Assembly: GCA_964444145.1 (NCBI GenBank)
Contig: CAYUFU010000002.1
Coordinates: 38,722 to 102,721 of the forward strand
Source of the DNA: an uncultured Chitinophagales bacterium
Lineage (GTDB): Bacteria > Bacteroidota > Ignavibacteria > UBA10030 > UBA6906
Reading direction: 5' to 3'
DNA length: 64,000 bases
The position numbers were made by a program, and so were the translations under genes. Every line of letters begins with the position of its first letter. The first letter of the stretch is position 1. Shown in pieces: positions 3,329 through 64,000 of this stretch. The notes below the pieces were generated by a model. That model saw nothing but the letters and a program-made list of their open reading frames with translations, did not search any database and was not told the origin of the DNA.

Positions 3329-3400
<72 letters not shown>

Positions 3401-3744: not shown

Positions 3745-5334
3745 ATGATTCACTCCCTTCTCCCACCTCCCCGCAGTGCCGATTACCGCATCGCAGTGGT
3801 AATCGCTGTATTTACCATCTCATGTACCTTCTTTATTTTCTCTTGCGACGACATTGACCCGCTGCCCCCTGCAGTTTCGACGGCGACCGCTCGGCTGACG
3901 GTCGAAGAAGTGCAAGTTCTCATCGCGCACGCAGTCGAACAAGCGCAGCGCGTGAATCAAAAGGTGATTGTCGCAGTGTCCGATCGCGAGGGGAATATTC
4001 TCGGCGCCTTTCGTATGACCGGTGCGCGGTTGGATTCGAGTGATCTGAATTTCAACGGCGGCACCGTGAAAGTCACCACACTCGATACAACAATCCGCAA
4101 AGCGCGCACGGCAGCATTCCTGAGCAGTAACCAACATGCCTTCTCGACCGCAACGGCATGCTTCATTACGCGTTCACATTTTCCTCCGGGTATCTCGAAT
4201 ACGCCCGCAGGTCCGCTATTTGGAGTCGGACTGTCGAGCTTGCCGGGCAGTGACATTATGCCGAACGGCAACGCGCTGAGCGATTTGCCCGGCGGCGTCC
4301 CAATTTACAAAGGTGGCGTGCTCGCGGGGGGCATCGGCGTACATGGCGCAGCGTCGCAATTCAATTCCACCTTGTGTACGGGACAGAGTTTTGACGAAAC
4401 GATAGCGCTCGGCGCGTTGGGTGAGTTCGTTCTTCCGCCAAACGTGCGCGGCGATGGAATTTTTATAGACGGTATTCGCTTCTTATTCGCGAACGGAGCC
4501 GCGCCGGCGGGGAATTTCACGCTCACGTTCGCGAATCTCTCGTCGCTTGGAGCGGTCCTCATGCCGGTGCTTGGTGCGCCGATTCAGAAATTTCCTTCGG
4601 TGGCAGGTTACGTGAACCTCGATGCTACCCATGATTTCAATCCGCGTGCTGGGTCAATCCTCACGGTAGCAGATGTCGAGCGAATCATCAGTCAAGCCGC
4701 GGCGCAAGCGGCGAAAACGCGTGCAGCGATCCGCCGTCCCGTTGGTGTATCCGCCCAAGTGTTCATCTCCGTTGTTGACTTGAACGGTTCCGTGCTCGGC
4801 ATTTGGCGCACACCCGATGCAACGATTTTCAGCTACGACGTGAGTGCCCAGAAGGCGCGCACTGCACTCGCATTTAGCGATCCGAACAACACGAACTTTG
4901 GACGACGCATCCGTTCGATCCTTGGCATCGCGCCGACTGCTCCACTTTCAATGACCACGCGCGCAGTCGGTTTCCTTGCGCAAGATTTTTATCCGCCCGG
5001 TATTGACCGCGATTCGCTCGGTCAACCTATGGCACCGGGACCGTTGTTTGAAGGGGAGAATTTCAGATATCAATTCCGTTTGCTCGGCGAGGCGGGATTG
5101 CCCGCGTACGGCAACGGCATCACGATTTTTCCTGGGGGCATTGCACTGTACAAGAACGGCCAGCTTGCAGGTGCCATCGGCATCAGCGGCGATGGTGTTG
5201 ATCAGGATGATATTATCGCGGCGGCGGGAACGGCAGGCTTCGAGCCTCCTGCAAATGTTCGCTGCGATCAGTATTCATTTCGCGGCGTGCGCTTGCCGTA
5301 TGTCAAGTTTCCGCGGCAGCCGGAGATTCGATAA
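3745..5334 (+). CDS. Exported (lipo)protein with two tandem GlcG/HbpS-like (haem-degrading, PF03928/DUF336-like) domains
   Basis: N-terminal hydrophobic stretch with Cys (AVVIAVFTISCTFFIFSCDD). Domain 1: LTVEEVQVLIAHAVEQAQRVNQKVIVAVSDREGNILGAFRMTGA...IRKARTAAF...GGVLAGGIGVHG. Domain 2: LTVADVERIISQAAAQAAKTRAAIRRPVGVSAQVFISVVDLNGSVLGIWRT...AQKARTALAF...GQLAGAIGISGDGVDQDD. Both follow the GlcG pattern. Confidence 0.7.
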   Translation: MIHSLLPPPRSADYRIAVVIAVFTISCTFFIFSCDDIDPLPPAVSTATARLTVEEVQVLIAHAVEQAQRVNQKVIVAVSDREGNILGAFRMTGARLDSSDLNFNGGTVKVTTLDTTIRKARTAAFLSSNQHAFSTATACFITRSHFPPGISNTPAGPLFGVGLSSLPGSDIMPNGNALSDLPGGVPIYKGGVLAGGIGVHGAASQFNSTLCTGQSFDETIALGALGEFVLPPNVRGDGIFIDGIRFLFANGAAPAGNFTLTFANLSSLGAVLMPVLGAPIQKFPSVAGYVNLDATHDFNPRAGSILTVADVERIISQAAAQAAKTRAAIRRPVGVSAQVFISVVDLNGSVLGIWRTPDATIFSYDVSAQKARTALAFSDPNNTNFGRRIRSILGIAPTAPLSMTTRAVGFLAQDFYPPGIDRDSLGQPMAPGPLFEGENFRYQFRLLGEAGLPAYGNGITIFPGGIALYKNGQLAGAIGISGDGVDQDDIIAAAGTAGFEPPANVRCDQYSFRGVRLPYVKFPRQPEIR

Positions 5335-7290: not shown

Positions 7291-10200
7291 ATGAATAGTT
7301 TCTTGTTGCGCGCAATTATCACTTGTGTAATCATTGAATGTCTCAGGGACACAATGATCGGCCAAGACTCCTTCATCAACCAAACCCAAGCCGACGCCGA
7401 TCGCAAGAGCAAAGGCTGCATCACGTGCCACGGCGGTATCGAGCCGATGCACAAGAGCAGCGCAGTAAAGTTAGGTTGCATTGATTGTCATGGCGGCAAT
7501 CCGAACGCGACGATTGCCGACCTCGCGCATGTGCAGCCGCGATTTCCCGACCGGTGGAAAACATCGGCGAATCCCCCGCGGACCTACACGCTGCTGAACG
7601 AAGAGTATCCCGAATTCGTTCAGTTCGTGAACCCGGGGGATTTGCGTGTTGCCGATAAAGCGTGCGGACCCTGCCACAATACGACAAGCGATCCAATCGT
7701 GCGCAACGTGCAAAAAAGTTTGATGACGACCAGCGCGCTGCTCTGGGGAGGCGCGGCGTACAACAACGGCATCGTCTCAACGAAAAATTACATTCTCGGT
7801 GAAAGTTACAGTTGGGACGGCAAGCCGCAGAAGATCAACACGGTTCCGGTGCCGAGCGCAGAGGACATGAAGAACAAAGGCGTGCTTCCGTTCGTCGTGC
7901 CGCTGCCGCGCTGGGAGATTACGCAGCCGCCGGATAATTTCCGCAGCTTCGAGCGCGGCGGCAAAGTTCCGCGCATCAATCCGTCGGAGATTGGTATTCC
8001 GAACCCATTTGAAGAGCCGGGCAGACCCGACAATAAGTTGAGCGATCGCGGAACGGGAACGCAACTGCGCATCAGCTCGCCGGTGTTGAACATCCACAAG
8101 ACGCGTTTGAACGACCCTCATCTGTCGTTCATGGGAACGAACGACAATCCGGGTGACTATCGTTCGAGTGGATGCACAGGCTGCCATGTCGTGTACGCAA
8201 ACGATCGCTCGAATTTCAACGCGGGTCCGTACGCGGTGTTTGGCAATCGTGGACAAAGCAAAACCGCCGACACGACGATTTCGAAAAGAGAGTCAGGGCA
8301 TCCTATCAAACATCAATTCACACGGGCGATTCCCTCGTCGCAATGCATGAGCTGCCACATGCACCAGCCGAACGCGTTCGTCAACACGTATCTCGGCTAC
8401 CAAATGTGGGACTACGAAACGGATGCAGAGTTGATGTATCCGAAGCAGCAGAAGTATCCGTCGAATGCGGAAGCCTTTGCGATGCTTGCGAGGAATCCGG
8501 AGGAGGCAGTGCTGCGCGGCAACTGGAGTGACCAGGAGTTTCTTGCTAATGTTTCCTCGCTCAACCCGCAGCTTGCGCACTCGCAGTTCTCTGATTACCA
8601 TGGACACGGCTGGGTGTTTCGCGCCGTCTTCAAACGAGATCGGAAAGGAAATCTGCTCGACAAGGACGGCAAAGTCATTCCCGACAACGCGCCGTTCAAG
8701 TTCGACGGCGTCGTGCCTATCGAAGGCGTCACGCCGAAGACAATGAGCGCCGCAAGTCAGAGCGCGCAGAAAGCCGTGCATTTGAAAGACATTCATCTGG
8801 AAAAAGGAATGCACTGCGTTGATTGTCATTTCAAACAGGACGCGCACGGCGATGGAAAGTTGAAAGGCGAGTTCCACAACGCGGTCGAAATTCAATGCGT
8901 TGATTGTCACGGAACCATGAGTGCGAGGGCAACGCTGAAAACCTCTGGAGTTGCCGCGCCGGCGGGCGGCACGGACTTGACGCAAACATTCACACCATTT
9001 GGCGAACGGCGTTTTCGAAAAACCGCGACGAGTATCAGACAGCGGTCGACTCTCGTGGACACCTTGAGTTGGGAAATTCTCCAGACAGTGGACTCGCACA
9101 CATCGGGCGCAGCGGGATACAATAAGAAAGCTGAAGCCGCCCATCTGATGTTGAAGGACGGTACGATTGGCAAGCCGAATTCGCCTGAGGAGATGTTCGC
9201 CCATTCATACAAAAAAATGGAATGCCAAGCTTGCCACACCTCTTGGATTACGAATTGCTTCGGCTGTCATCTCCCGCAGCAAGCGAATTGGAAGAAACAG
9301 ATGAACCACTACGAAGGCGAGCTCTCGCGCAACTGGACGACATACAATCCACAAGTGCTGCGCGACGATGCGTATATGCTCTGCCTGACGGGCACAACGA
9401 AAGGAAGCAAGATCACGACGGCACGTTCATCGAGTGCGCTCGTCCTCAGTTCGGTGAACGCGAATCGCGAACAGATTTACATTCAGCAAGCGCCGATCTC
9501 ATCACCGGGGCACAGCAGTCAGGCGTTCAATCCGCATTTCTCGCATGCCGTCCGAGCAACCGAGACGAAGCAATGCACCGATTGCCACGTCTCGTCGAAG
9601 AACGACAATAACGCGTGGATGGCGCAGTTGCTTTTGCAAGGAACGAACTTCGTCAACTTCATCGGGAAGTATGCGTACGTTGCTGCGGGCGACGGCGGAC
9701 TCGAAGCGGTGCAAGTGACCGAGCAAGACGAGCCGCAAGCGGTGATCGGAAGTTATCTGCACAGCATTGCGTATCCGGATTATTACAAGGCGCATCTCGA
9801 CAATCGGAAGCAACTCCGAACTTCCTATCATCACAGCGGCAGCGCCTTGAGCGTGCAGTTGCGCGGCGAGTATCTGTACGCGGCGTGCGGCGAAGACGGG
9901 TTCCGCGTGTATGATGTCGCAAACGTGGATAACAAAGGGTTCTCCGAACGCATCGTCACGTCACCGGTATCGCCCTTCGGGCAGGACACGCACGTGAAGA
10001 CCCGTTTCGCAACCGCGGTCGCGCTCCCGACCAACATGCCGATTGACACGCGGCGAAGGTATCGTCCGGAAAACCAAGAGCAGGCGGTCGAGTATAACGG
10101 GAAACAACTCAATCTTCATCCGTCCTATAGCTACGCCTATATCACCGACAGATATGAGGGGTTGATTCTTGTTGATGTGATGAACCTCGTGGACGGAGAC

Positions 10201-11004
10201 CCCCGAAATAATTTCTTGGAGCGTGCGCTCACGTTCAATCCCAATGGGATCTTGAATGGTGCAGTGAATCTTGCGGTTGCGGGGAATTACGTTTATGTTT
10301 GCTGCGACCGCGGCGTCGTCATCGTCAGCATCGCAGATCCGATGAAGCCACGCGTTGCCGCCGAGATTCCGGCGCCTGCAATCACGAAGCCGAAAGCGAT
10401 TGCCATTCAATTCCGCTACGCGTTCGTCGTTGATGACCAAGGTGTGAAGGTGATTGACTTGACGTGGATGGATCAGCCGAAGCTCGTGAAGAGCGCCGTG
10501 GTTCCGCTGCAAGATGCGAATGATGTTTACGTTGCGCGAACGTACGCGTACGTTGCAGCCGGCGCTCAAGGGCTGGCGATTATTGACGTTGAAAATCCAG
10601 AAGCGCCGAGGCTTGAAAAGTTGTTCACAGCGGACGGCGCTATCACTGATGCGCAAGGAGTGAAAGTCGCCTCGACCAACGCGAGCCTGTTCGCGTACGT
10701 TGCCGATGGGAAAAATGGTTTGCGTGTCATTCAGCTCACGTCGCCGAAAACGCCCGGCTATTTAGGCTTCAGTCCGAAGCCCGTGCCGCAATTGATCGCG
10801 ACGATGCCGATGCGCGGCAGAGCGCTTGCTGTCTCGAAAGGGATGGATCGCGACCGCGCGGTGGACGAAAGCGGCAATCAGGTCAGCGTGTTCGGCAGGC
10901 TCGGCTCGCGCCCGTTCACGCACGATGAAATGCGGCAGATGTATTTGAAAGAGGGAAAGTTGTGGACTGTGACGGATGATGGGAGTGTTTCTCTCAAGAA
11001 ATGA
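7291..11004 (+). CDS. Decahaem c-type cytochrome fused to a C-terminal LVIVD-repeat beta-propeller (1237 aa)
   Basis: Ten CXXCH motifs in the first ~770 aa: CITCH, CIDCH, CGPCH, CTGCH, CMSCH, CVDCH x2, CQACH, CFGCH, CTDCH. The C-terminal ~450 aa consist of LVIVD-type repeats (YLYAACGEDGFRVYDVANVDN, YAYITDRYEGLILVDVMNL, YVYVCCDRGVVIVSIADPMKP, YAFVVDDQGVKVIDLTWMDQP, YAYVAAGAQGLAIIDVENPEAP, FAYVADGKNGLRVIQLTSPKTP). The N-terminus MNSFLLRAIITCVIIECL is hydrophobic (signal/anchor). Confidence 0.85.
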   Translation: MNSFLLRAIITCVIIECLRDTMIGQDSFINQTQADADRKSKGCITCHGGIEPMHKSSAVKLGCIDCHGGNPNATIADLAHVQPRFPDRWKTSANPPRTYTLLNEEYPEFVQFVNPGDLRVADKACGPCHNTTSDPIVRNVQKSLMTTSALLWGGAAYNNGIVSTKNYILGESYSWDGKPQKINTVPVPSAEDMKNKGVLPFVVPLPRWEITQPPDNFRSFERGGKVPRINPSEIGIPNPFEEPGRPDNKLSDRGTGTQLRISSPVLNIHKTRLNDPHLSFMGTNDNPGDYRSSGCTGCHVVYANDRSNFNAGPYAVFGNRGQSKTADTTISKRESGHPIKHQFTRAIPSSQCMSCHMHQPNAFVNTYLGYQMWDYETDAELMYPKQQKYPSNAEAFAMLARNPEEAVLRGNWSDQEFLANVSSLNPQLAHSQFSDYHGHGWVFRAVFKRDRKGNLLDKDGKVIPDNAPFKFDGVVPIEGVTPKTMSAASQSAQKAVHLKDIHLEKGMHCVDCHFKQDAHGDGKLKGEFHNAVEIQCVDCHGTMSARATLKTSGVAAPAGGTDLTQTFTPFGERRFRKTATSIRQRSTLVDTLSWEILQTVDSHTSGAAGYNKKAEAAHLMLKDGTIGKPNSPEEMFAHSYKKMECQACHTSWITNCFGCHLPQQANWKKQMNHYEGELSRNWTTYNPQVLRDDAYMLCLTGTTKGSKITTARSSSALVLSSVNANREQIYIQQAPISSPGHSSQAFNPHFSHAVRATETKQCTDCHVSSKNDNNAWMAQLLLQGTNFVNFIGKYAYVAAGDGGLEAVQVTEQDEPQAVIGSYLHSIAYPDYYKAHLDNRKQLRTSYHHSGSALSVQLRGEYLYAACGEDGFRVYDVANVDNKGFSERIVTSPVSPFGQDTHVKTRFATAVALPTNMPIDTRRRYRPENQEQAVEYNGKQLNLHPSYSYAYITDRYEGLILVDVMNLVDGDPRNNFLERALTFNPNGILNGAVNLAVAGNYVYVCCDRGVVIVSIADPMKPRVAAEIPAPAITKPKAIAIQFRYAFVVDDQGVKVIDLTWMDQPKLVKSAVVPLQDANDVYVARTYAYVAAGAQGLAIIDVENPEAPRLEKLFTADGAITDAQGVKVASTNASLFAYVADGKNGLRVIQLTSPKTPGYLGFSPKPVPQLIATMPMRGRALAVSKGMDRDRAVDESGNQVSVFGRLGSRPFTHDEMRQMYLKEGKLWTVTDDGSVSLKK

Positions 11005-11048
11005 AAAGCAATATCGAATATCGAACAAGGAATGTTGAATAACGAAGT
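11005..11048 (+). repeat. Cassette terminal repeat, copy A (AAAGCAATATCGAATATCGAACAAGGAATGTTGAATAACGAAGTG), directly after the cytochrome stop codon
   Basis: Shares GCAATATCGAA...CAAGGAATG...CGAAGTG blocks with copy B (11112-11146, same orientation) and with the inverted copy C (11577-11620). Confidence 0.6.
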
Positions 11049-11111
11049 GAGAGCGCAACGGCTGTGCTTGTTAGTTCATGACCTCCTTATCCAAAGCTCT
11101 GTAAGGAGATG

Positions 11112-11146
11112 AAAAACAATATCGAATATTGAACAAGGAATGTCGG
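11112..11146 (+). repeat. Cassette repeat, copy B (AAAAACAATATCGAATATTGAACAAGGAATGTCGGA)
   Basis: Direct repeat of copy A, 107 bp downstream. Overlaps the TTG-initiated 5' end of ORF 11129..11566. Confidence 0.55.
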
Positions 11147-11155
11147 ATTTTTCAA

Positions 11156-11566
11156 ATGAGGACGGTGATGGATTCGAGACAGAAGCGACAGTTTGATCTC
11201 GAAGAGCGGCTCATTGATTTTTCCTGCATGATCATTGACATCGTCGAGGCGCTCCCCGATACGAAAGTAGGCAATCATGTAGCGGGACAGATTCTGCGGT
11301 CTGGAACTTCACCTGCGCCGAATTATGCCGAAGCGACGAGCGCGGAATCGCGACAGGACTTCATTCACAAGATGAAAGTTTCGCTCAAGGAGTTTCGTGA
11401 GACGAACGTGTGGCTCAAAGTCATAAAGCGAAGAGCCCTTATCAAGCCTTTGGAAAAAATGGAGATTGCGCTGACCGAATGCCGCGAACTCATTTCGATT
11501 TTCGTAACGAGCATCGCGACAGCGAAACGAAATCTGAGGACAATCCCGAGGGCAAGTTCCAAATGA
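11156..11566 (+). CDS. Four-helix-bundle protein (TIGR02436-like, the family encoded inside 23S rRNA intervening sequences)
   Basis: MRTVMDSRQKRQFDLEERLIDFSCMIIDIVEALPDTKVGNHVAGQILRSGTSPAPNYAEATSAES...KMKVSLKEFRETNVWLKVIKR matches the conserved layout of this family. A paralogue lies at 17150-17590. ORF-track start 11129 is TTG; ATG at 11156 preferred. Confidence 0.7.
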   Translation: MRTVMDSRQKRQFDLEERLIDFSCMIIDIVEALPDTKVGNHVAGQILRSGTSPAPNYAEATSAESRQDFIHKMKVSLKEFRETNVWLKVIKRRALIKPLEKMEIALTECRELISIFVTSIATAKRNLRTIPRASSK

Positions 11567-12588
11567 AGTTCACCGGCACTTCGATATTCAATATTCGTCA
11601 TTCCTTGTTCGATATTGCTCTTATCCTTTTTGCGTTGTGGGGCGATGCTTTTGCACAAGGAAAATACCAAACGCTTGGTCCTTCCGGCTGCGGCATCGGT
11701 CAGGACAAGTGCCACGCGACCGAAAACGGACAGATGATCAAGCAGCACAAGAACTCCGCAACAAGTATTGCCGATGGAGAAAATTCACAAAAGTACGCGG
11801 ACGCGCTCGGCGTGAAAGAGTTTCTCCAAAGCCCCCAGTGCATGAATTGCCATGGAACGATTATTTCCGGCAAAGAAGGGAAGGAAGTCGAAGAAGGGGT
11901 GAGTTGCGAGAGTTGTCATGGCGCGGGAAGCGGCTACAAAGATCCGCACTCCGAAGGCCCGAAAGGTAGTGAAGGACAGCCTCGTCCTGGCTACACAAAA
12001 AGCCTCGCGCTGGGACTTGCCGATTTGAAGAAGCCGGAAGAGATAGCAAAAGCATGCGTGCGTTGTCACTACACGACGGATCAAAGACTTATCAGCGCAG
12101 GCCATCCCGATGGTGCCAAGTTTGCCTACAAGTCGAAAATGAAGGATGTAGCGGAGCACTGGAGGTACCGCGACAAAAAGAATGTTCCCGAAGGAGCGGT
12201 ATTCAAAGCAGCGATGGATCGTCGGGCGCCGGGCGCGAAATTCTCTCAGACGCCCAAGCCGGTTGCCCAGCAGGCTCCTGCGCAGCCACCGGTAAAAAGT
12301 CCAGCGCCGACTCCCCAAAAGCCGACTCCGCAAAGTGTTGACGTCACTGCGCCGCCGTTGCAGAAGCAGAACATCGGCGATCAGCCCGCGCCAACGCCGC
12401 GCGTGCGTAAGCCACCACCACCGCCTACACCTGTTGCCGCCGATCGCGACGCTGATCCCCCGCCGACTCCGGCCGAACTGAAAGATCTGCCGCCGTTTCC
12501 GGCGATCACCGAGAGCACGCGCGTTGATCGCATGCTGTTGTTGCTGAAAAAAAGGTTGGAGCTACTCTACACGAAGACAAAAAACTGA
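11563..12588 (+). CDS. Small exported c-type cytochrome (3 canonical CXXCH plus one CX6CH-like site) with a Pro-rich C-terminal tail
   Basis: Signal peptide MKFTGTSIFNIRHSLFDIALILFALWGDAFAQG. Haem motifs CMNCH, CESCH, CVRCH, plus CGIGQDKCH. Tail PKPVAQQAPAQPPVKSPAPTPQKPTPQ...KPPPPPTP. ORF-track start 11410 overlaps the four-helix-bundle gene in another frame and is rejected. ATG 11563 yields the signal peptide. Confidence 0.75.
   Translation: MKFTGTSIFNIRHSLFDIALILFALWGDAFAQGKYQTLGPSGCGIGQDKCHATENGQMIKQHKNSATSIADGENSQKYADALGVKEFLQSPQCMNCHGTIISGKEGKEVEEGVSCESCHGAGSGYKDPHSEGPKGSEGQPRPGYTKSLALGLADLKKPEEIAKACVRCHYTTDQRLISAGHPDGAKFAYKSKMKDVAEHWRYRDKKNVPEGAVFKAAMDRRAPGAKFSQTPKPVAQQAPAQPPVKSPAPTPQKPTPQSVDVTAPPLQKQNIGDQPAPTPRVRKPPPPPTPVAADRDADPPPTPAELKDLPPFPAITESTRVDRMLLLLKKRLELLYTKTKN
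11577..11620 (-). repeat. Cassette terminal repeat, copy C (inverted relative to A/B); lies inside the signal-peptide coding region of the 11563 cytochrome
   Basis: Reverse complement GAGCAATATCGAACAAGGAATGACGAATATTGAATATCGAAGTG matches copy A at both ends. Confidence 0.6.
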
Positions 12589-12816: not shown

Positions 12817-12831
12817 AAATAATTCGTGATT

Positions 12832-14460
12832 ATGTCACTCGGTCAAACACAACTCAAACGTCTCGAACAGTATAAGGATCGTTGGACGTCATTCGGCGCA
12901 ACGACGGGCATCATCGAGCTGTCCGAAAAACCGACGCCTGAAGTCTTGAAACGCTTCGAGATCTTCAAAAGCTACGACGACAAATTCCTCGAGAAGATTT
13001 CGCCTGACGTTTCGGTTGCGCGATGGAAAGCAGGAACGGTGCTGTTCGAAGAGGGAAGTTATCTTGATCTTGCGTTCTTCGTTTTCTCGGGGACGGTGGA
13101 TGTGTATTTGGAAAAAACGCGAGGCACGCCATCACCTATTTTCGACCGTGGTAAAACACGAGTGATTACGGCTCCTCTTGAAGGCGGCACGCGCCCGACA
13201 TCGCCGCAGCGAACGATGTTCATGACGCAAGTCGGCAAGCAAGAACGCGCGACAGGGCAAATCACCTTTCTCGCTGCGATGGATTTCAATTTGCCGGCGG
13301 CAGCAACGATGCGGTTGGGCACAGGAGAGATGTTTGGTGAAATCGGCGCGCTGAGCGGCTGGCCCCAATCCGTCACCGCCAAAACTGCGAGCGAGTGCGT
13401 GCTCGTGCAAATCCGCACGGCGGCACTGCGACTCATGCGCAAACGCTCGAGTGCCCTCAAGCAGCGTCTCGACGCATTATACAAAGAACGCTCGCTGATC
13501 GCGCAGTTGCAGGCGACCCCGCTCTTTCGGGCTGCAAGCGAGTCGTTCATTCGCGCCGTTGCAGAAAAAGTTGACCTTGTCTCCTGCGAGCCGGACGATG
13601 TGCTGACGCGTGAGGGCGAACCGTGCGACGCGCTCTATTTGGTGCGCAGCGGTTTCATAAAACTCTCCCAGAAAGTGGGAGAGGGTGAGATTGTCGTCTC
13701 GTACCTTTCGAAAGGAAGTACACTCGGCGATGCGGAATTGTTGCTCGAGGGAAATCCTGGCTGGCTCTTCACGGCATCGTCGAAAGAGTATTCGGAGCTT
13801 GTCAAAATCCCGCGCACAGAATTCCAGAATCTCATGACGCAAAGCCCCGGTGCTGAGCGCATGTTGTGGGAATCCGTTGTTGCGCGTGTCAAGGAATCGG
13901 GCTTCAATCGGAAGAACATCGGGCAAGCGGAGTTTCTTTCCACCGCAATCAACAAAGGCTTGGTGGAAGGCAACAGCATGCTCGTCATTGATCTCAATGT
14001 TTGCACGCGTTGCGATGACTGTGTGCGCGGCTGTTCGGATACACACGGCGGCATACCGCGTTTCGTGCGCGAAGGGGACAAGGTTGGTAACTTTCTCGTT
14101 ACGCGTTCGTGCTACCATTGTCAAGACCCCGTCTGCTTGGTTGGCTGCCCGACGGGAGCAATACGGCGGACGGACGTCGGCGACGTTGTTGCCATCGAGG
14201 ATAACCTTTGCATCGGGTGCGCGTCATGCGCCAACAATTGTCCCTACGACGCGATCGTGATGCACAACGTCGGCGGCATGTGGCCCAGCGACATGATCCC
14301 CGAAGGGTTGCGCGGAAAAGAGAAAACACTCGCGACAAAATGCGATTTATGCTACAAGGACCCGGCGGGTCCCGCCTGCGTGCGCAGTTGTCCGCACGGC
14401 TGTGCAGTGCGTGTCGGCGACGTGCAGGAATTTCAATCGCTGCTCTGGAAGGAAGTGTGA
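12832..14460 (+). CDS. Two cyclic-nucleotide-binding (cNMP) domains fused to an NrfC/PsrB/HybA-like ferredoxin with four [4Fe-4S] clusters
   Basis: cNMP domain 1: GTVLFEEGSYLDLAFFVFSGTVDVY...GEMFGEIGALSGWPQSVTAKTASECVLVQI. cNMP domain 2: DDVLTREGEPCDALYLVRSGFIKL...LGDAELLLEGNPGWLFTASS. Four Cys clusters: CTRCDDCVRGC, CYHCQDPVCLVGCP, CIGCASCANNCP, CDLCYKDPAGPACVRSCP. No Tat or signal peptide, so predicted cytoplasmic. ORF-track start 12826 is GTG; ATG at 12832. Confidence 0.8.
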   Translation: MSLGQTQLKRLEQYKDRWTSFGATTGIIELSEKPTPEVLKRFEIFKSYDDKFLEKISPDVSVARWKAGTVLFEEGSYLDLAFFVFSGTVDVYLEKTRGTPSPIFDRGKTRVITAPLEGGTRPTSPQRTMFMTQVGKQERATGQITFLAAMDFNLPAAATMRLGTGEMFGEIGALSGWPQSVTAKTASECVLVQIRTAALRLMRKRSSALKQRLDALYKERSLIAQLQATPLFRAASESFIRAVAEKVDLVSCEPDDVLTREGEPCDALYLVRSGFIKLSQKVGEGEIVVSYLSKGSTLGDAELLLEGNPGWLFTASSKEYSELVKIPRTEFQNLMTQSPGAERMLWESVVARVKESGFNRKNIGQAEFLSTAINKGLVEGNSMLVIDLNVCTRCDDCVRGCSDTHGGIPRFVREGDKVGNFLVTRSCYHCQDPVCLVGCPTGAIRRTDVGDVVAIEDNLCIGCASCANNCPYDAIVMHNVGGMWPSDMIPEGLRGKEKTLATKCDLCYKDPAGPACVRSCPHGCAVRVGDVQEFQSLLWKEV

Positions 14461-15299
14461 TGCCAAAGTCACTACTCAGATCAATCCCTCTGGACAAGCT
14501 CGTCCGCTCTCCCGATTGGGCGGCGGGATTGCTTATCGCAAGCCTCGTGCTCGGCGCAATGTACGCACTGAACGCGTACCTTGACGAAATCAATCCGGGT
14601 AACTGGTGGGGCTTGACGTACGGCTGGCTTTCGGCGCTGCTCATGCTTGGCGCGGGTTTGTATGGCGTGCGACGAAGAATGTTAAACCGCAACATTGGCA
14701 ACTCAAAAGTCTGGGTACAGTTTCATATTTACGGGGGCTTGCTCGCGGGTTTGCTTTTCTTGTTTCATACCGGCTTTCGTTTTCCGAGCGGTCTGTTCAA
14801 TTGGCTGCTCTGGCTGCTCTCGGTTTGGGTGACGGTCAGCGGCGTCATCGGCGTCGTGTTGCAGCGATGGATTCCGCGCATTCTTGCGTCGGGACTTTCG
14901 ACCGAAGCGGTGTACGAGCGCATTCCTGAACTCATCGGGCACGTACGCGAGCGAGCCGAGAAACTTGCGAGTTCCTGTACGATGCCTGTGCAGGATTTTT
15001 ACCGCGCGACGCTCGCAGCGGAGTTCGCCATGCCGCGTCCGCGCCTCATTTATTATTTCGACGTGACCGGGGGGATTCAGTCGTGTATCAGACGCTTCGA
15101 GTTTCTTCGCCGCGTCCTCTCGGTCGAGGAGAAAGAAAAGCTCGATAGCTTACAAGACATGTATCGAACGAAATTGGAATTGGATGCACATTACTCGCTG
15201 CAGACTGCATTGCGGTGGTGGCTCTTCTCGCACGTGCCGCTCTCGCTTGTACTGCTGCTGATGATCGCACTGCATGTTTGGGCAGTGTGGTATTACTAA
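14460..15299 (+). CDS. Integral membrane protein (5 predicted TM helices, His-rich), candidate b-type cytochrome-like membrane anchor
   Basis: Start ATG overlaps the upstream TGA (gtgATGcc), i.e. translational coupling. Helices AAGLLIASLVLGAMYALNAYL, WWGLTYGWLSALLMLGAGLYGV, VWVQFHIYGGLLAGLLFLFHTGF, LFNWLLWLLSVWVTVSGVIGVVL, WWLFSHVPLSLVLLLMIALHVWAVWYY. His residues sit inside helices 3 and 5. Haem ligation is inference only. Confidence 0.65.
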   Translation: MPKSLLRSIPLDKLVRSPDWAAGLLIASLVLGAMYALNAYLDEINPGNWWGLTYGWLSALLMLGAGLYGVRRRMLNRNIGNSKVWVQFHIYGGLLAGLLFLFHTGFRFPSGLFNWLLWLLSVWVTVSGVIGVVLQRWIPRILASGLSTEAVYERIPELIGHVRERAEKLASSCTMPVQDFYRATLAAEFAMPRPRLIYYFDVTGGIQSCIRRFEFLRRVLSVEEKEKLDSLQDMYRTKLELDAHYSLQTALRWWLFSHVPLSLVLLLMIALHVWAVWYY

Positions 15300-17051: not shown

Positions 17052-17130
17052 GCGGAGCGAAGGGCATTGGCTGCTTGGTGGATTGGTGGATTGATGGATT
17101 GATGGATTGATGGATTGCGGATGCGCGGGT
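17043..17130 (+). repeat. Left arm of the GGATTGAT element: AAGCCCTGAGCGGAGCGAAGGGCAT module plus (GGATTGGT/GGATTGAT)x5; starts inside the last codons of the cytochrome gene
   Basis: The same 5' module TAAGCCCTGATCGGAGCGAAGGGTAT recurs at 55409. Confidence 0.65.
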
Positions 17131-17149: not shown

Positions 17150-17590
17150 ATGGAATACACAAAACTCAGAAACAAGAATCGCGGCTACATGAAGTTGGAT
17201 GTGTGGCAAAAGGGAATCGTGCTGTTCCAGCTCGTTTGGAATCTCATCACGAAAGCAAAAGTAGATTTTAAGCTGCGGTCACAAATCGCCAATGCTGCTC
17301 AAGGGATTTCATCCAACATCGCGGAAGGCTATAGCAGACGCTCGGTAAAGGAGTATCTTCAATTCTTGTATGTTTCTCTCGGCTGTCTTTCTGAAACGCT
17401 CACGAGGTCTGTGGGGCTAAAAGTGATAAACCAAATCTCTGAAGACGAGTTCAATCAGATTGACGTTTTGCATTATGAAATTGAAAACAAACTGTGGCGA
17501 TTGGTCGAAAGTTTAGGGCGGAAGAAAGACGATGGCACGTGGAGCGATCGCGTCTCAGAGGATTTATCGGAATACCCAACAATCCAATAA
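17150..17590 (+). CDS. Four-helix-bundle protein (TIGR02436-like), second copy
   Basis: MKLDVWQKGIVLFQLVWNLITKAKVDFKLRSQIANAAQGISSNIAEGYSRRSVKEYLQFLYVSLGCLSE carries the family signatures LDVWQK, NIAEGY and EYLxFLxxSxGSLxE. Alternative start at M14 (17189). The C-terminal codons overlap the right repeat arm. Confidence 0.75.
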   Translation: MEYTKLRNKNRGYMKLDVWQKGIVLFQLVWNLITKAKVDFKLRSQIANAAQGISSNIAEGYSRRSVKEYLQFLYVSLGCLSETLTRSVGLKVINQISEDEFNQIDVLHYEIENKLWRLVESLGRKKDDGTWSDRVSEDLSEYPTIQ

Positions 17591-17625
17591 TCCATTTATC
17601 CATGAATCCATTGATTCATTATTCC
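17575..17625. repeat. Right (inverse-type) arm of the GGATTGAT element (CCAACAATCCAATAATCCATTTATCCATGAATCCATTGATTCA)
   Basis: Complement-type CAATCC units mirror the GGATTG units of the left arm. Confidence 0.6.
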
Positions 17626-17635
17626 TCCTAGTGTT

Positions 17636-18538
17636 ATGAAAGCGCGTCTCTTTTGTAAAACAGGCCAGCTCGCCGGCGCGAGCTTCGAGATTGGGACGGA
17701 CGCGATGATCGGCAAGAGTGCCGAATGCGTGATTCAACTCTACCCGCAGTTGATCTCGTCGCGCCATGCGCGCATTTATTTTGACGAAAAAGCGCAGAGC
17801 TATTTTCTCGAAGACCTCAATAGCCGTAATGGAACGAAATTAGACGGCACTCGTGTCAAAACAAAGGAGCGGCTCGGCTCGCTGCACGTGATTACGCTCG
17901 CGAACACGTTCGATTTTCTTTTCCAAGTGATTGACGAGAGCCAACAGATCGCAGCGCCGAAGGGTGAGCCTGCAAAACCAGCGACGCTCAAAACAGAGTT
18001 GGGGAGCGGCTACGTGCCACAGCAAACGCCGCCCCCCGCAATGCAGCAGGTTGCACCGAAAACCGTAATGAGCGACGAGCCATTGGCGAACGCTCCGCTC
18101 GCGTCTCACTCGCGGGAGAAAACGATTTTCGAGAACGATGCAATTCCCGTCTTTCGACAACCGAAGGAACAGGAGAAACGAGCCGACGCGAAGATTCCAG
18201 AAGAGAGTATCCCCACCCCCATGCCTCGTCCGCAGACGCCCGCAGCAAAACCTATCACCTTTGCAGTGGTAGTGGACTCGACGGGAAAATCCTACGAACT
18301 CAACGAAGGCTCGACCATTGTCGGCAGAGACGCATCGTGCGGCATCTGCATCGAACATGGCTCGGTCTCGCGCAAGCACGCGGAGTTGCTGCTCAAAGGC
18401 GGCAAGTTGACCGTCAAAGATTTGGGGAGCAAGAATCATACATTCATCAACGATCAGAAAATCAAAGTTGAGACGGAAATCCACGAGGGCGTAACGCTGA
18501 CCTTTGGCGTGGTGAGGGCGCGGGTGGTTAAGGCCTGA
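17636..18538 (+). CDS. Protein with two FHA domains separated by a Pro/Ala-rich linker
   Basis: FHA 1: IGKSAECVIQL...SSRHARIYFDEKAQSYFLEDLNSRNGTKLDG. FHA 2: TIVGRDASCGICIEHGSVSRKHAELLLKGGKLTVKDLGSKNHTFINDQKI. Both carry the G-R...S-R/H...N-G-T/hydrophobic signature. Confidence 0.8.
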   Translation: MKARLFCKTGQLAGASFEIGTDAMIGKSAECVIQLYPQLISSRHARIYFDEKAQSYFLEDLNSRNGTKLDGTRVKTKERLGSLHVITLANTFDFLFQVIDESQQIAAPKGEPAKPATLKTELGSGYVPQQTPPPAMQQVAPKTVMSDEPLANAPLASHSREKTIFENDAIPVFRQPKEQEKRADAKIPEESIPTPMPRPQTPAAKPITFAVVVDSTGKSYELNEGSTIVGRDASCGICIEHGSVSRKHAELLLKGGKLTVKDLGSKNHTFINDQKIKVETEIHEGVTLTFGVVRARVVKA

Positions 18539-18904: not shown

Positions 18905-19681
18905 ATGAGACAGACACACACGGCAATCGTTACGATGGTTGCTCTCTTGCATTGCCTGACAGCGGCGCAGCCGAGCGGCAAATCTTCGACACCCAACAAG
19001 GAAACACCGAAACCTGTCCCCGACGGCATGGCGCTGGTCGAGGGAGGCTGGTTCCACATGGGACGCAACGAGGTTCTTTCTGAACCGGGGTATCGAGTAT
19101 ACGTCAGGTCGTTCTTCATGGACAAGCACGAAGTGACTGTTGGACAGTACCGCAAGTTTTGCGATGCGACGGGGCGAGCGATGCCAGCCGATCCTTCATG
19201 GGAAACGAGCGATGATCATCCGATTGTCAATGTCTCATGGGATGACGCAAACGCGTATGCACGCTGGGCAGGCAAGCGGCTGCCGACAGAAGCCGAGTGG
19301 GAATATGCCGCAAGAGGTGGGAACAAGAGCCGCGGCTTCAGGTATAGCGGCGGCAAAACGCTGGATGAGATTGCATGGTATCACGCCAATGCAAACGATC
19401 AAGCGCATCCTGTCGGCGAAAAGCAACCGAATGAGTTGGGCTTGCACGATATGAGCGGCAACGTCCATGAATGGTGTGCGGACTGGTACGACCCGAACTA
19501 TTACACGAAAAGCCCAGCGGAAAATCCGAAAGGACCGACGAGCGGTACGACGCGCGTTGTACGTGGTGGGTCGTTTGGCGGCGGTGGGCTTGAATATGAT
19601 CCGTATGAAGTGTCCCAGCGGTTCGATGAAAAGCCAACGACCAAGGGAGAGAATTGGGGCTTTCGATGTGTCAAAGACTAA
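18905..19681 (+). CDS. Secreted formylglycine-generating-enzyme (FGE/SUMF1, PF03781) family protein
   Basis: Signal peptide MRQTHTAIVTMVALLHCLTAAQPSG. Motifs HEVTVGQYRKF, WDDANAYARWAGKRLPTEAEWEYAARGG, GNVHEWCADWY, RVVRGGSF. Confidence 0.8.
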   Translation: MRQTHTAIVTMVALLHCLTAAQPSGKSSTPNKETPKPVPDGMALVEGGWFHMGRNEVLSEPGYRVYVRSFFMDKHEVTVGQYRKFCDATGRAMPADPSWETSDDHPIVNVSWDDANAYARWAGKRLPTEAEWEYAARGGNKSRGFRYSGGKTLDEIAWYHANANDQAHPVGEKQPNELGLHDMSGNVHEWCADWYDPNYYTKSPAENPKGPTSGTTRVVRGGSFGGGGLEYDPYEVSQRFDEKPTTKGENWGFRCVKD

Positions 19682-19701: not shown

Positions 19702-22047
19702 ATGCCCGATGTGCAATACACCCCCGACGGCTCTCTCATTCTGAGTGAGTCTGTCCAGATTCCCGACATCCTCGACCTTCTCGTCGTTGGGGGCGGACCG
19801 GCGGGCACTGCCGCAGCGTTTCGCGCGAAGGAACTCGGCTTGAGCACGCTCGTGATTGACTACGACGATCTCATGAAGCGCATCCGCGATTACCCGAAAG
19901 ACAAACTCATTCTTCCCGACTTCGGCGGCGGCGATCAGATGCGCTTTCCAAAAGGCGGCGACTTGATCACGGCGCTCCATTTTTCTCCTCTCGACAAAGA
20001 TGAAATGGTGAATGAGTGGAAGCGCTTGTACGTTACCTACAACGTGCCCGCCCAAGTCGGCATCGAGTTGTTGGGTTTGACCCCACGGGGCGGTGGCGTT
20101 TGGGAAGTGAAGACGTGGAACCACAACATCAAGAAAGAGCAGCAAGTGCTCGCGAGGCATGTCGCCATCGGCATCGGGCGCGGTGTGCCGCGCCGGTTCG
20201 ATATTCCCGGCAATACCGATGGCATCGCCTATCGTCTCGATGATGCGCTTGCGTATGTCGGTTCGCCGTCGCTCGTCATCGGCGGCGGCACGTCTGCGGC
20301 GGAAGCGGTGATTACAATCTCCAATGCTAAAGCAAAGTTCAACGACACCTCGGCAGTGTATTGGTCGTATCGCAGCGAGAAACTGCCGAAAGTGTCGAAG
20401 GCACTCGCCGATGTGTTCTTCGAGGCATATATCGGCAACGGCAACATTCGCTATTATCCCAACAGCGAGCCTGTTGCAGTCGTGACTGCGGACGACAAGA
20501 AGGATTATTTATCGCTTCGCGTCGATCGGAAACTGATTGCCGGCAGGCCGAACGAGACGCTGCATCTCGAATTTCCGAAGGAGTCTTGTATCGCGTGCAT
20601 CGGCGAAGATATACCGGAGACGTTTCTGAATTCGTTGGGCATCAACATGGTGACCGGCGGGGCGGCGAACAAAAAGCGGATGTGCGTAACGCCGTTGCTC
20701 GAAACGCAACAGCCGAACGTCTATCTGATCGGCGACATTCTTTCGCAAGCGTATCTTGAAACGGAAAACTTCGCCGCCGATCCGGCGACGTTCAACGAGG
20801 TGAAGCATCGCGGCAACATCAAAGCCGCGCTTGTGGATGGCGTGCTTGTCGCGGAAGTTGTGGCGCAGCGTGTCGCGGGAAAGAAGGAGATTGATGTGAA
20901 GATAGACTTCATCGAGGAAGTGAGCGGTCCTCGGCAGCCGGTGACACCAAATCCGGTAACACGCATTCTCACGGTGCCACCCGGTATGAAGCAAGCCGAG
21001 GTCGTCCAGCCGGTCGAGCAGAATCGCGCTTATCTTGCGCGCATCATCGTCGGCAGTGTGGAAGGCGAAGAATTCCCGGTCGCGATGAATGGCATCACCA
21101 CCATCGGCAAGAAATTCTGCGATATCGTTTTCCCAGATGATCCGTTTCTCTCCGATCGGCACGCCTCGATTGTGCACGGACCCGATGGCTTCTTCATCCG
21201 TGACGACGGGAGCGAATCCGGCGTCTTCGTCCGTGCAACAGAGGGCAAGTCCATCGAAGTTTCCTCCAGCGATTTGGTGCGGGTGGGGAAGCAGTTTCTC
21301 CTGTTTCGCAATGATGAAAACGGCGCTGTCTTCAGTCAATTCGACGCGGTCGGGAAGTTCGTCAAATTATTTCCTCTCAAAGAGAACACCATCGTGGTCG
21401 GTCGCGACGCTCCCGACATCACGCTCGATACGAAGGACTTGACCTTGTCCCGCAGGCATCTCGCGATCTCTCTGAAGCAAGGAAGAATCTCCATCAAAGA
21501 TTTGAAGAGCGTCAACGGCACCTACCTCAAGGTGCGCAACATGCTGCGCATCGAGCCGGAGGATATTTTCCGTGTCGGTGGCCAGACGTTCAAGCTGCTC
21601 GTGCGTCAAGAGCGTTCGACGAAGTCCATCCGCATTACGACATCTCCCCTTGTACGTGGCGACGTGACACCGCGCGAGACGCATGTGCAGGCGGAGCCTC
21701 CCGGTGCGGCGAAGCCTGCTGCTCCAGCCACTCCCGTTGCTGCACCGGCAGCGACGGGAAATGTCATCGTCTTCAAGAATGTTGGGAAGACACTCGCATT
21801 TGCGCCGGGAGAGACGATTTGCAGCGTTGCAGAGAAAAACGGCATTAAGATCGTTGCCGAGTGCCATGCAGGGATTTGCGGCAGCGATCCGATCAGAATC
21901 ATTTCGGGCGGCGACAAACTCAACGCGATGAGTGCAGCAGAGAAAGAAGCGTTAGAGGATATTTGCGGTCTCAGCACAACCGACCATCGCCTTGCCTGTA
22001 TGGCGAAGCCGACGGGAAGCGTGGAAGTGGAAATTGTCAAGGGGTGA
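19702..22047 (+). CDS. Multidomain fusion: FAD/NAD(P)-binding oxidoreductase, two FHA domains and a C-terminal [2Fe-2S] ferredoxin-like domain
   Basis: N-terminus LDLLVVGGGPAGTAAAF (dinucleotide fold), second GGG site SLVIGGGTSAAEAV, GD motif VYLIGDILSQ. FHA 1: ARIIVGSVEGEEF...SDRHASIVHGPDGFFIRDDGSESGVFV. FHA 2: TIVVGRDAPDITLD...SRRHLAISLKQGRISIKDLKSVNGTYL. Ferredoxin part: ICSVAEKNGIKIVAECHAGICGSD...CGLSTTDHRLACM. Confidence 0.8.
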   Translation: MPDVQYTPDGSLILSESVQIPDILDLLVVGGGPAGTAAAFRAKELGLSTLVIDYDDLMKRIRDYPKDKLILPDFGGGDQMRFPKGGDLITALHFSPLDKDEMVNEWKRLYVTYNVPAQVGIELLGLTPRGGGVWEVKTWNHNIKKEQQVLARHVAIGIGRGVPRRFDIPGNTDGIAYRLDDALAYVGSPSLVIGGGTSAAEAVITISNAKAKFNDTSAVYWSYRSEKLPKVSKALADVFFEAYIGNGNIRYYPNSEPVAVVTADDKKDYLSLRVDRKLIAGRPNETLHLEFPKESCIACIGEDIPETFLNSLGINMVTGGAANKKRMCVTPLLETQQPNVYLIGDILSQAYLETENFAADPATFNEVKHRGNIKAALVDGVLVAEVVAQRVAGKKEIDVKIDFIEEVSGPRQPVTPNPVTRILTVPPGMKQAEVVQPVEQNRAYLARIIVGSVEGEEFPVAMNGITTIGKKFCDIVFPDDPFLSDRHASIVHGPDGFFIRDDGSESGVFVRATEGKSIEVSSSDLVRVGKQFLLFRNDENGAVFSQFDAVGKFVKLFPLKENTIVVGRDAPDITLDTKDLTLSRRHLAISLKQGRISIKDLKSVNGTYLKVRNMLRIEPEDIFRVGGQTFKLLVRQERSTKSIRITTSPLVRGDVTPRETHVQAEPPGAAKPAAPATPVAAPAATGNVIVFKNVGKTLAFAPGETICSVAEKNGIKIVAECHAGICGSDPIRIISGGDKLNAMSAAEKEALEDICGLSTTDHRLACMAKPTGSVEVEIVKG

Positions 22048-63165: not shown

Positions 63166-64000
63166 ATGCGGCTGACGATGTTGTTGTGGGGGAGTGTTCT
63201 CCTTTCTTCCAATCTTCATGCTCAAGTCACGCTTCTCGGCTCCATCGCTCCGCCGCACGGAACGACCGGCGGCGTATCGTATGCGGGGTGTTGGGGCTAC
63301 GTCGCTCCCGACGGTCGCGAGTACGCAATCCTCGGCACCGCGACTGGTTGCTCGATCATTGACATCACCAACGCCGCTGCGCCTGTCGAAATCGGACACA
63401 TTGGAGGCGTTACTTCTCTGTGGAAAGAAGTGAGCGCCTATGACCACTACGCGTATTGCGTGTCGGACGTGAACGGTGCGCAAGGACTTCAAATCATCAA
63501 CCTCGCAAACCTGCCGACCAGCGTCGCACTCGATACAACCATCTTCAGTCTCGGCGGCTTCAGCATCGCGCAAGTTCATACGATTTCCATTCACAACGGC
63601 TTTTTGTATTTGAACGGAACGGGAAGCGGGATGATTATCGCGAGCCTCGCAGACCCTCGCCGTCCGCAGTATCTCGGTCGTTGGAATACGCGCTACACGC
63701 ACGATTCGTACACGCGCAACGACACGATCTTTGCCGCTTGTCTCTCGAATGGAGTCAACAGCGGACTCTATATTATCAACGCGACAAACAAAGCGGCGCC
63801 GACTATCATCGCGAGTATTCTCTACACTGGCGCGGGCACGCACAATGTTTGGCTCACGAAGGATCGTCGCTACGCCGTGACGACGGATGAAATCGGCTCG
63901 ACGGCAAAGAATCTGAAAGTGTGGAATCTGCAAAACCTCCCGACGGTTTCGACGACCCCCGTGGCAACCTTCAGCGTTACGCCGGCTGATATTGTGCATA
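63166..64000 (+). CDS. Secreted LVIVD-repeat beta-propeller protein (N-terminal 278 aa; continues past the window end)
   Basis: ATG 63166 after AAAGGAG. MRLTMLLWGSVLLSSNLHAQ signal. Repeats YAYCVSDVNGAQGLQIINLANLP, GFLYLNGTGSGMIIASLADPRRP, TIFAACLSNGVNSGLYIINATNKAAP, YAVTTDEIGSTAKNLKVWNLQNLP. The minus-strand ORF 63136..63999 in the track is its antisense shadow. Confidence 0.7.
   Translation, partial: MRLTMLLWGSVLLSSNLHAQVTLLGSIAPPHGTTGGVSYAGCWGYVAPDGREYAILGTATGCSIIDITNAAAPVEIGHIGGVTSLWKEVSAYDHYAYCVSDVNGAQGLQIINLANLPTSVALDTTIFSLGGFSIAQVHTISIHNGFLYLNGTGSGMIIASLADPRRPQYLGRWNTRYTHDSYTRNDTIFAACLSNGVNSGLYIINATNKAAPTIIASILYTGAGTHNVWLTKDRRYAVTTDEIGSTAKNLKVWNLQNLPTVSTTPVATFSVTPADIVH

Follow-up and report, generated by a model that had tools for sequence, protein, structure and literature searches.

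A decahaem cytochrome fused to an LVIVD-type propeller, its outer-membrane barrel partner and a seven-gene module shared by distant bacterial phyla

Bacterial routes known to move electrons to the outer membrane, such as Mtr, Pcc and Cyc2, start at the quinone pool and have been studied mostly in metal-respiring or iron-oxidising specialists. In the Mtr type, a barrel of 26 strands, MtrB, sheaths a folded cytochrome. In anaerobes, operons of multihaem cytochromes are also known to encode separate six-bladed propellers, of the NHL type. Beta-propellers recur beside large multihaem cytochromes in several systems with a proposed function in extracellular electron transfer (PMC5815863, PMC5539420, bioRxiv 10.1101/2022.05.06.490989). 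Another described system is the extHIJKLMNOPQS cluster of Geobacter, which encodes the 12-haem cytochrome ExtM together with a porin-like protein, a cytochrome b and an iron-sulphur (Fe-S) protein (PMC5877670). Here we describe a gene in which a decahaem c-type cytochrome and a predicted seven-bladed propeller of the LVIVD type are joined in a single polypeptide. It lies in a stretch of 64,000 nucleotides from an uncultured Chitinophagales bacterium (contig CAYUFU010000002.1, positions 38,722 to 102,721), the whole of which we call the window. The fusion belongs to a large family, is paired with the gene of an outer-membrane barrel, and is part of a seven-gene module that recurs across phyla and may form a conduit for electrons through the cell envelope.

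The fusion gene is one unbroken open reading frame (ORF) of 1237 codons on the forward strand (Table 1). Ten CXXCH motifs lie at amino acids 43, 63, 125, 295, 352, 509, 536, 645, 656 and 762, and the propeller starts straight after the last of these haem sites; shuffled versions of the protein have a mean of 0.016 CXXCH and never more than one. The Pfam model LVIVD (PF08309), whose cut-off is 20.2 bits, matches the whole protein with 77 bits and amino acids 791-1237 alone with 89 bits, in six repeat stretches. These repeats are predicted to fold into a closed beta-propeller of seven blades. An earlier note on this DNA had proposed a decahaem cytochrome followed by six or more LVIVD repeats in the last ~450 residues, and had named a failure of the repeats against LVIVD hidden Markov models as a possible refutation; both parts of the architecture hold, and the model is matched well above its cut-off.

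Sequence searches place the protein in no described family, as the earlier note had suspected. No Pfam or NCBIfam model spans the cytochrome part, which gives weak Pfam c3_2/c7 matches around amino acids 500-550, while a few homologues show faint matches to the Pfam models of MtrC domains II and IV. The best NCBIfam match is ExtM (NF040943), with 96 bits in three partial stretches against a cut-off of 800; we therefore reject membership and regard ExtM as a distant relative. The choice-of-anchor B model (TIGR04312) scores 33 bits, under its cut-off of 100. Sequence and profile searches of the PDB with the fusion protein were empty or marginal and gave no relative. All the source names of homologues that we saw read 'hypothetical protein', and we found no description of the cytochrome-propeller fusion, or of the seven-gene module, in the open-access full-text literature.

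Among 5.8 billion proteins we found at least 120 full-length homologues (1176-1340 amino acids, 57-100% identity), whose sources are Ignavibacteria/Bacteroidota, Calditrichota, KSB1, Nitrospira, Desulfobacterota and Omnitrophota. In addition, when a single genome of each GTDB species was scanned, at least 600 stretches matched, which puts the family in at least 600 species. The best 80 loci all contain the complete fusion, at 51-83% identity, so that the fusion, which the earlier note had proposed to seek in other genomes, is far from being a singular case. The loci extend the range to Thermoanaerobaculia and other Acidobacteriota, Bdellovibrionota, Planctomycetota, Myxococcota and Alpha-, Beta- and Gammaproteobacteria, with Limnobacter alexandrii LZ-4 and Fontimonas sp. 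SYSU GA230001 as cultured carriers. Methylobacter and Nitrospira are also among the hosts of the module, and many hosts are obligate aerobes.

Could two adjacent genes, one for a cytochrome and one for an LVIVD protein, have been joined by a sequencing or assembly error? A single fusion ORF of ~1200-1300 amino acids recurs in 78 loci that are independent of one another and stem from various projects and phyla. Among the 83 long fusion ORFs examined, 73 have all ten CXXCH motifs and nine have nine; the last, a truncated ORF, has eight. We found no point in support of an artefact, and distant members of 1650-1700 amino acids have the same architecture; we thus reject a frameshift or two-gene origin, whose probability we consider close to nil. 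The earlier note was right to read one gene here.

Two of the distant members, P0257 (1648 amino acids) and P0260 (1702 amino acids), retain the decahaem-propeller core and have gained either an N-terminal extension of ~550 amino acids with many more CXXCH motifs or large insertions. The haem wire, therefore, can evidently be lengthened. We found no clear case of the cytochrome standing alone among 2796 phmmer hits of amino acids 1-790 against 1.84 billion representatives, because the long hits are all fusions of ~1200-1700 amino acids and the others appear to be fragments or frameshifted gene predictions.

Each of the ten CXXCH motifs is kept in 69 to 72 of the 72 sequences that we aligned, and the cytochrome part has 15 further histidines that are at least 92% conserved. 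Since the motifs are kept and these histidines would suffice for bis-His ligation of all haems, conservation argues for a role of the fusion in electron transfer. Conservation is the same in the two halves of the protein, at 0.68 for the cytochrome and 0.67 for the propeller. The propeller has many invariant polar residues, only three conserved histidines and no recognisable cofactor motif.

In all 71 loci that have enough flanking sequence, the fusion gene is directly preceded, on its own strand, by a gene for an outer-membrane beta-barrel, and the two genes overlap in one of these loci (L001). The protein of the window, X581, has no Pfam or NCBIfam family and no sequence-level relative in the PDB; its family is large and annotated solely as hypothetical. 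The AlphaFold2 model of X581, with a predicted local distance difference test score of 80, has ~18 long strands, and its top Foldseek match is the alginate exporter AlgE (E 7e-16, template modelling score 0.65-0.71), followed by the OprD/Occ porins. The propeller, or the DRDRAVDESGNQ loop, would be the candidate contact with the barrel. We rejected a porin-cytochrome complex of the MtrAB type: a barrel of ~26 strands would be needed, and the MtrA/DmsE model (TIGR03508) is absent from the NCBIfam hits of the fusion protein at E up to 1.

The 18-strand barrel cannot sheath the cytochrome as MtrB does, and this keeps alive a reading in which the fusion is a periplasmic multihaem oxidoreductase. 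The haem chain would deliver electrons to, or withdraw them from, a substrate site at or near the propeller, as in cd1 nitrite reductase, hydrazine synthase and nitrous oxide reductase, and the barrel would be a channel for a soluble, probably anionic, substrate or product. Such an enzyme would account for the likeness of the barrel to the substrate channels AlgE and OprD/Occ rather than to MtrB, and for the Sec signals, not lipoprotein signals, of most members. The propeller is conserved to nearly the same degree as the cytochrome and has many invariant polar residues, more than a passive scaffold needs, and the identity of 51-60% over 1200 amino acids between phyla is of an enzyme-like level. 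Structural neighbours include cd1 nitrite reductase, the beta subunit of hydrazine synthase and nitrous oxide reductase, and the nearest named relative, ExtM, belongs to a porin-containing operon tied to selenite and tellurite reduction (PMC5877670). However, the conserved histidines are enough for ten six-coordinate haems, which leaves no obvious open catalytic haem, and the propeller has only three conserved histidines and no cofactor motif that we could recognise. The likeness to enzyme propellers is that of the general fold, at 10-15% identity, and the ~25 haems and obligatory outer-membrane partner described here would seem needless for a periplasmic enzyme. We consider an enzyme unlikely, although well within the range of serious possibilities.

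The genes around the fusion form a larger conserved unit. Clustering of 909 neighbour ORFs from 82 loci gave exactly seven recurrent families, present in 78, 65, 56, 55, 50, 49 and 43 loci, while the next commonest occurs in 10. The same clustering gave no further conserved neighbours, such as TonB receptors, a type II secretion system or oxidases, beyond the seven core genes. The commonness of the fusion, its pairing with the barrel and the seven-gene module are all additions to what the earlier note contained. The members of the module in the window, with some other features discussed here, are listed in Table 1.

Table 1. Position and main characteristics of the fusion gene, its module and other proteins in the window
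Feature	Position	Strand	Characteristics
Tandem HbpS-like (GlcG/DUF336) protein, probable lipoprotein signal	3745..5334	+	Pfam PF03928 E 1e-29, 2 stretches
Outer-membrane beta-barrel X581, 581 amino acids	5489..7234	+	Signal peptide, no Cys, C-terminal ...FTY, ~18 strands predicted
Decahaem c-type cytochrome fused to predicted seven-bladed LVIVD propeller, 1237 amino acids	7291..11004	+	Single ORF, ten CXXCH
N-terminal cytochrome domain of the fusion, amino acids 1-790	7291..9660	+	Weak signal peptide, ten CXXCH sites
C-terminal LVIVD/YVTN-type propeller of the fusion, predicted seven-bladed	9661..11001	+	Near-invariant motif DRDRAVDESGNQVSVFGRLGSRPF at amino acids 1187-1210
c554-like periplasmic multihaem cytochrome, Pro-rich tail	11560..12588	+	Pfam Cytochrome_C554 E 2e-9, 3 CXXCH
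Two cyclic nucleotide monophosphate (cNMP)-binding domains and four-cluster [4Fe-4S] ferredoxin module	12826..14460	+	Pfam cNMP_binding E 1e-28, 2 stretches; Fer4 families
Five-helix membrane protein	14460..15299	+	Weak Ni_hydr_CYTB match, 20 bits
Decahaem cytochrome with N-terminal membrane anchor, 538 amino acids	15435..17051	+	Ten CXXCH, hydrophobic helix, Pfam c7/c3_2
Protein with two FHA domains	17636..18538	+	Pfam FHA E 4e-35, 2 stretches
Flavin adenine dinucleotide (FAD)/pyridine-nucleotide-disulfide oxidoreductase with two FHA and a 2Fe-2S ferredoxin domain	19702..22047	+	Pfam Pyr_redox_2/3, FHA x2, Fer2
Choice-of-anchor B protein, runs off the window	63166-63999	+	TIGR04312 110 bits, cut-off 100; LVIVD 11 bits

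The HbpS-like gene is present in 31 of the 35 loci with full flanks. The nearest solved relatives of its product are the C-terminal haem-binding domain of PduO (5cx7) and EfgA; about half of its homologues have lipobox-like signals, often with a Gly/Ser-rich linker. The c554-like cytochrome gene occurs in 26 of these 35 loci, and in 49 loci by clustering. N-terminal to its three CXXCH motifs, the c554-like protein has a conserved non-canonical CXnCH motif, which is CGIGQDKCH (CX7CH) in the window and in L004, and CX4CH, for example CASSTCH or CVNSGCH, in most proteobacterial and acidobacterial homologues; this motif may be a fourth haem site.

The other core genes encode a second decahaem cytochrome, a membrane protein and an Fe-S protein. 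The anchored decahaem gene was found in 30 of 35 loci; in Nitrospira (L003) its product has a cytoplasmic FHA domain fused to it. The five-helix membrane protein has no PDB relative, and its residues His89/His103 and His258/His272 are 98-100% conserved among 50 homologues, each pair being spaced by 14 residues, on the third and fifth transmembrane helices. From this quartet of histidines we infer a dihaem transmembrane cytochrome b. The Fe-S protein, whose gene is present in 30 of 35 loci, has four groups of cysteines and no Tat or Sec signal, and its relatives in the PDB are HycB, NrfC/PsrB and NarH. The lack of an export signal and the presence of cNMP-binding domains place it in the cytoplasm. 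In most phyla, for example in Nitrospira and Limnobacter, an FAD/pyridine-nucleotide oxidoreductase forms the N-terminal part of this protein. The FAD-FHA-ferredoxin protein of the window is homologous to the N-terminal part of these fused FAD-cNMP-Fer4 proteins and, judged by this homology, represents a flavin input module that has been split off in the lineage of the window. The two-FHA protein is a lineage-specific accessory, probably regulatory, and occurs mostly in L004 and L006, which are the closest relatives.

A CHASE2 adenylate/guanylate cyclase adjoins the module in eight loci, including that of Limnobacter alexandrii (L058, 17522-21272), where a protein with a FecR domain lies beside it. 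The cyclase matches the cNMP-binding domains of the Fe-S protein and may be the source of the nucleotide that they sense. Ccm cytochrome-maturation genes flank the module in Limnobacter and occur sporadically elsewhere.

Is the module mainly a redox sensor, in which the haem chain informs signalling domains in the cytoplasm of redox conditions outside the cell or in the periplasm? It is rich in signalling elements, with two cNMP-binding domains, FHA domains fused to or near the cytochromes, and the adjoining CHASE2 cyclase. Moreover, proteins of the HbpS type are extracellular redox sensors in Streptomyces (HbpS-SenS-SenR), and the nearest solved relatives of the HbpS-like partner include the sensor EfgA. 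However, the seven-gene core has no kinase, DNA-binding or cyclase output domain, and ~25 haems, four Fe-S clusters and an FAD would be a very costly outlay for a sensor. We therefore find this reading improbable.

We read the module instead as a multihaem system for electron transfer through the envelope, in which both the outer-membrane end and the cNMP-gated cytoplasmic start are new. The interpretation that we favour, tentatively and at somewhat less than an even chance, is that NAD(P)H feeds a conduit of which the fusion forms the outer-membrane end. Electrons would pass from NAD(P)H to the FAD of the cytoplasmic flavoprotein (a separate protein in the window, the fused form in most phyla) and from there to the four-cluster Fe-S protein, with the two cNMP-binding domains acting as a gate. 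The clusters would reduce the putative dihaem cytochrome b, which would carry electrons over the inner membrane, and the membrane-anchored decahaem followed by the c554-like cytochrome would bring them through the periplasm to the decahaem-propeller fusion, where the chain would end. The 18-strand barrel and the HbpS-like lipoprotein would hold the fusion at the outer membrane, and the propeller could be a docking or binding platform, either for these two partners or for the terminal acceptor.

The distribution of haems is compatible with such a conduit. A static wire spanning the periplasm would fit, since the ~25 haems are distributed over three cytochromes, of which one is anchored in the inner membrane and one is paired with the barrel. 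At one haem per 77 residues, the cytochrome part of the fusion is near the surface decahaems MtrC and OmcA in haem density, unlike MtrA. Several points weigh against a conduit, nonetheless. The 18-strand barrel, which resembles substrate channels, is too narrow to sheath a folded cytochrome, which leaves the passage of electrons over this membrane without an explanation. The signals do not point to surface exposure either, because most members of the fusion family have plain, clean Sec signals, and a lipobox-like signal appears in 12 of 79. The N-terminus of the copy in the window is weakly signal-like and has no alternative start or frame, and the AlphaFold2 model of the fusion, which is haem-free, is of moderate confidence in the cytochrome part. 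Finally, it is not evident why obligate aerobes would need such a conduit.

The sequences do not settle which way electrons flow, and electrons could instead be taken up: the fusion would oxidise a donor outside the cell or in the periplasm, such as Fe(II), Mn(II) or reduced humics, and electrons would run inward through the cytochromes and the dihaem b to the cytoplasmic Fe-S flavoprotein. That Nitrospira, Methylobacter and Limnobacter, among other chemolithotrophs and aerobes, have the module would suit uptake, as would the resemblance of the four-cluster protein and dihaem b to NarHI, which includes the similarity to NarH in the PDB search. In NarHI, electrons pass from the periplasmic to the cytoplasmic side. 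However, inward flow would oppose the membrane potential, reduction of NAD(P)+ by high-potential donors would be strongly uphill, and no quinone, oxidase or carbon-fixation genes were linked to the module by neighbour clustering. There is, in our judgement, little chance that uptake is the function.

If electrons do leave through the NAD(P)H-fed conduit, a non-respiratory role would be likelier than dissimilatory metal respiration, since many of the hosts are aerobes. Candidate roles are the extracellular reduction of Fe(III), Mn or humics for acquisition or defence, or a controlled reduction of O2. A wider claim is possible, at odds clearly below even: the fusion and its two partners, the AlgE-like barrel and the HbpS-like lipoprotein, would make up a new type of outer-membrane redox complex, the exit of an unrecognised export system that is fed by NAD(P)H, gated by cNMP and by phosphothreonine-binding FHA domains, independent of the quinone pool and widespread in aerobic and facultative bacteria of many phyla. 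If such an export system is real, it would be a candidate for the extracellular redox activities of aerobes (reductive Fe/Mn acquisition, humic reduction, regulated extracellular superoxide production), and extracellular redox chemistry would be a far more general bacterial trait than is now assumed. Cultured strains such as Limnobacter alexandrii LZ-4 and Fontimonas sp. would then supply candidate genes for it. If the fusion is instead a periplasmic enzyme, it represents a large and widespread family of redox enzymes without a known substrate. Either way, at least four families that lack a Pfam or NCBIfam model would gain a context: the cytochrome domain of the fusion, the barrel, the dihaem b and the anchored decahaem.

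The module of the window contains or adjoins several further genes. A gene for a four-helix-bundle protein of the 23S rRNA intervening-sequence type (TIGR02436/PF05635) lies at 11129-11566, between the fusion and c554-like genes. It is bracketed by 43-nucleotide inverted repeats (11007-11049 and 11577-11619, 81% complementary), the right arm of which overlaps the 5' end of the c554-like gene, and a direct repeat of 51 nucleotides is found nearby (10990-11040 and 11098-11148). Since L004 and L006 have no gene at this place, it looks like a small inserted cassette. A second four-helix-bundle gene (17150-17590) is inserted after the anchored decahaem gene and is flanked by 8-nucleotide repeat arrays, of the ATTGGTGG type upstream (17066-17097) and of the ATCCATTx type downstream (17574-17621), which are roughly reverse complements of one another. 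BLASTP detects no similarity between the two four-helix-bundle proteins. A gene for an FGE-sulfatase protein (formylglycine-generating enzyme-like; 18905-19681, forward strand), located between the two-FHA and FAD-FHA-ferredoxin genes, is probably not part of the core, because homologues lie near the module in only two other loci. A single tRNA gene (3329-3400, reverse strand; Rfam 69 bits) is found just upstream of the module.

Elsewhere in the window, the reverse strand encodes, at 23312-24793, a PETase-like or chlorophyllase-like alpha/beta hydrolase with a weak C-terminal sorting domain of the type IX secretion system (Por_Secre_tail), which fits a host of the FCB group (Ignavibacteria/Bacteroidota-like). 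The protein starting at 63166 had been cited in the earlier note as a separate LVIVD propeller. It belongs to the choice-of-anchor B family, as its TIGR04312 score indicates, whereas its LVIVD score is below threshold, and the note is thus borne out in part on this protein.

How does the module compare with the systems described so far? MtrAB/MtrCAB, PioAB/MtoAB and the Pcc systems of Geobacter likewise pair the gene of an outer-membrane barrel with that of a decahaem cytochrome, have further periplasmic and inner-membrane cytochromes in the cluster and include a lipoprotein as a possible third outer-membrane partner. However, the barrel of the module is predicted to have ~18 strands and to be AlgE-like, against the 26 strands of the MtrB/PioB type; the fusion cytochrome is three to four times larger than MtrA/DmsE and has a fused propeller; and the lipoprotein partner is HbpS-like, not a cytochrome. 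The porin-cytochrome complex reported for Methylobacter in 2026 is a true MtrA/MtrB pair, and thus of another family than the fusion (PMC13322032). ExtM, the best named relative of the fusion cytochrome domain, also belongs to a cluster with a porin, a cytochrome b and an Fe-S protein, but it has 12 haems, a profile of ~600 amino acids and no propeller, and the ext cluster contains a Rieske/cytochrome b pair and a rhodanese.

The order of a haem c domain followed by a propeller is shared with cd1 nitrite reductase, hydrazine synthase and nitrous oxide reductase, all among the structural neighbours. The propeller of cd1 nitrite reductase is eight-bladed and binds haem d1, and nitrous oxide reductase has a His-rich CuZ site, whereas the fusion has seven predicted blades, three conserved histidines and 10-15% identity. 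The fusion does not qualify as a cd1-like enzyme, which would have an eight-bladed propeller that binds haem d1 through conserved histidine ligands; the hydrazine-synthase homologues of PMC12758564 are a different family. Surface propellers of the YVTN/LVIVD type (archaeal S-layer protein 1l0q, BtuG/YncE) have no redox domain in the same protein. In the DFE clusters of D. ferrophilus, the SEEP-SRB1 operon and uet of Tenderia, the propeller is a separate, six-bladed protein, in contrast to the covalently attached LVIVD/YVTN propeller of the fusion. The cytochromes of these systems have 11-26 haems and their hosts are mostly anaerobes, whereas the fusion family is common in aerobes.

On the cytoplasmic side, the module resembles NarHI and FdnHI in having a four-cluster ferredoxin on a membrane protein with two pairs of histidines 14 residues apart, and its proposed logic, from NAD(P)H through FAD and two b haems to the outside, is that of NOX and the ferric reductases (FRE). 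It differs in having no molybdoenzyme subunit, in the cNMP domains inserted in the Fe-S protein and in the multihaem acceptor chain. Mtr, Pio and Pcc start at a quinol dehydrogenase such as CymA, ImcH or CbcL; the module, by contrast, appears to start at a cytoplasmic FAD/Fe-S protein with built-in cNMP control, coupled to the putative dihaem b, and it ends in a cytochrome-propeller fusion with a small barrel. Its hosts, too, set it apart from the systems of metal-respiring and iron-oxidising specialists, since they include ordinary aerobic heterotrophs and nitrite oxidisers.

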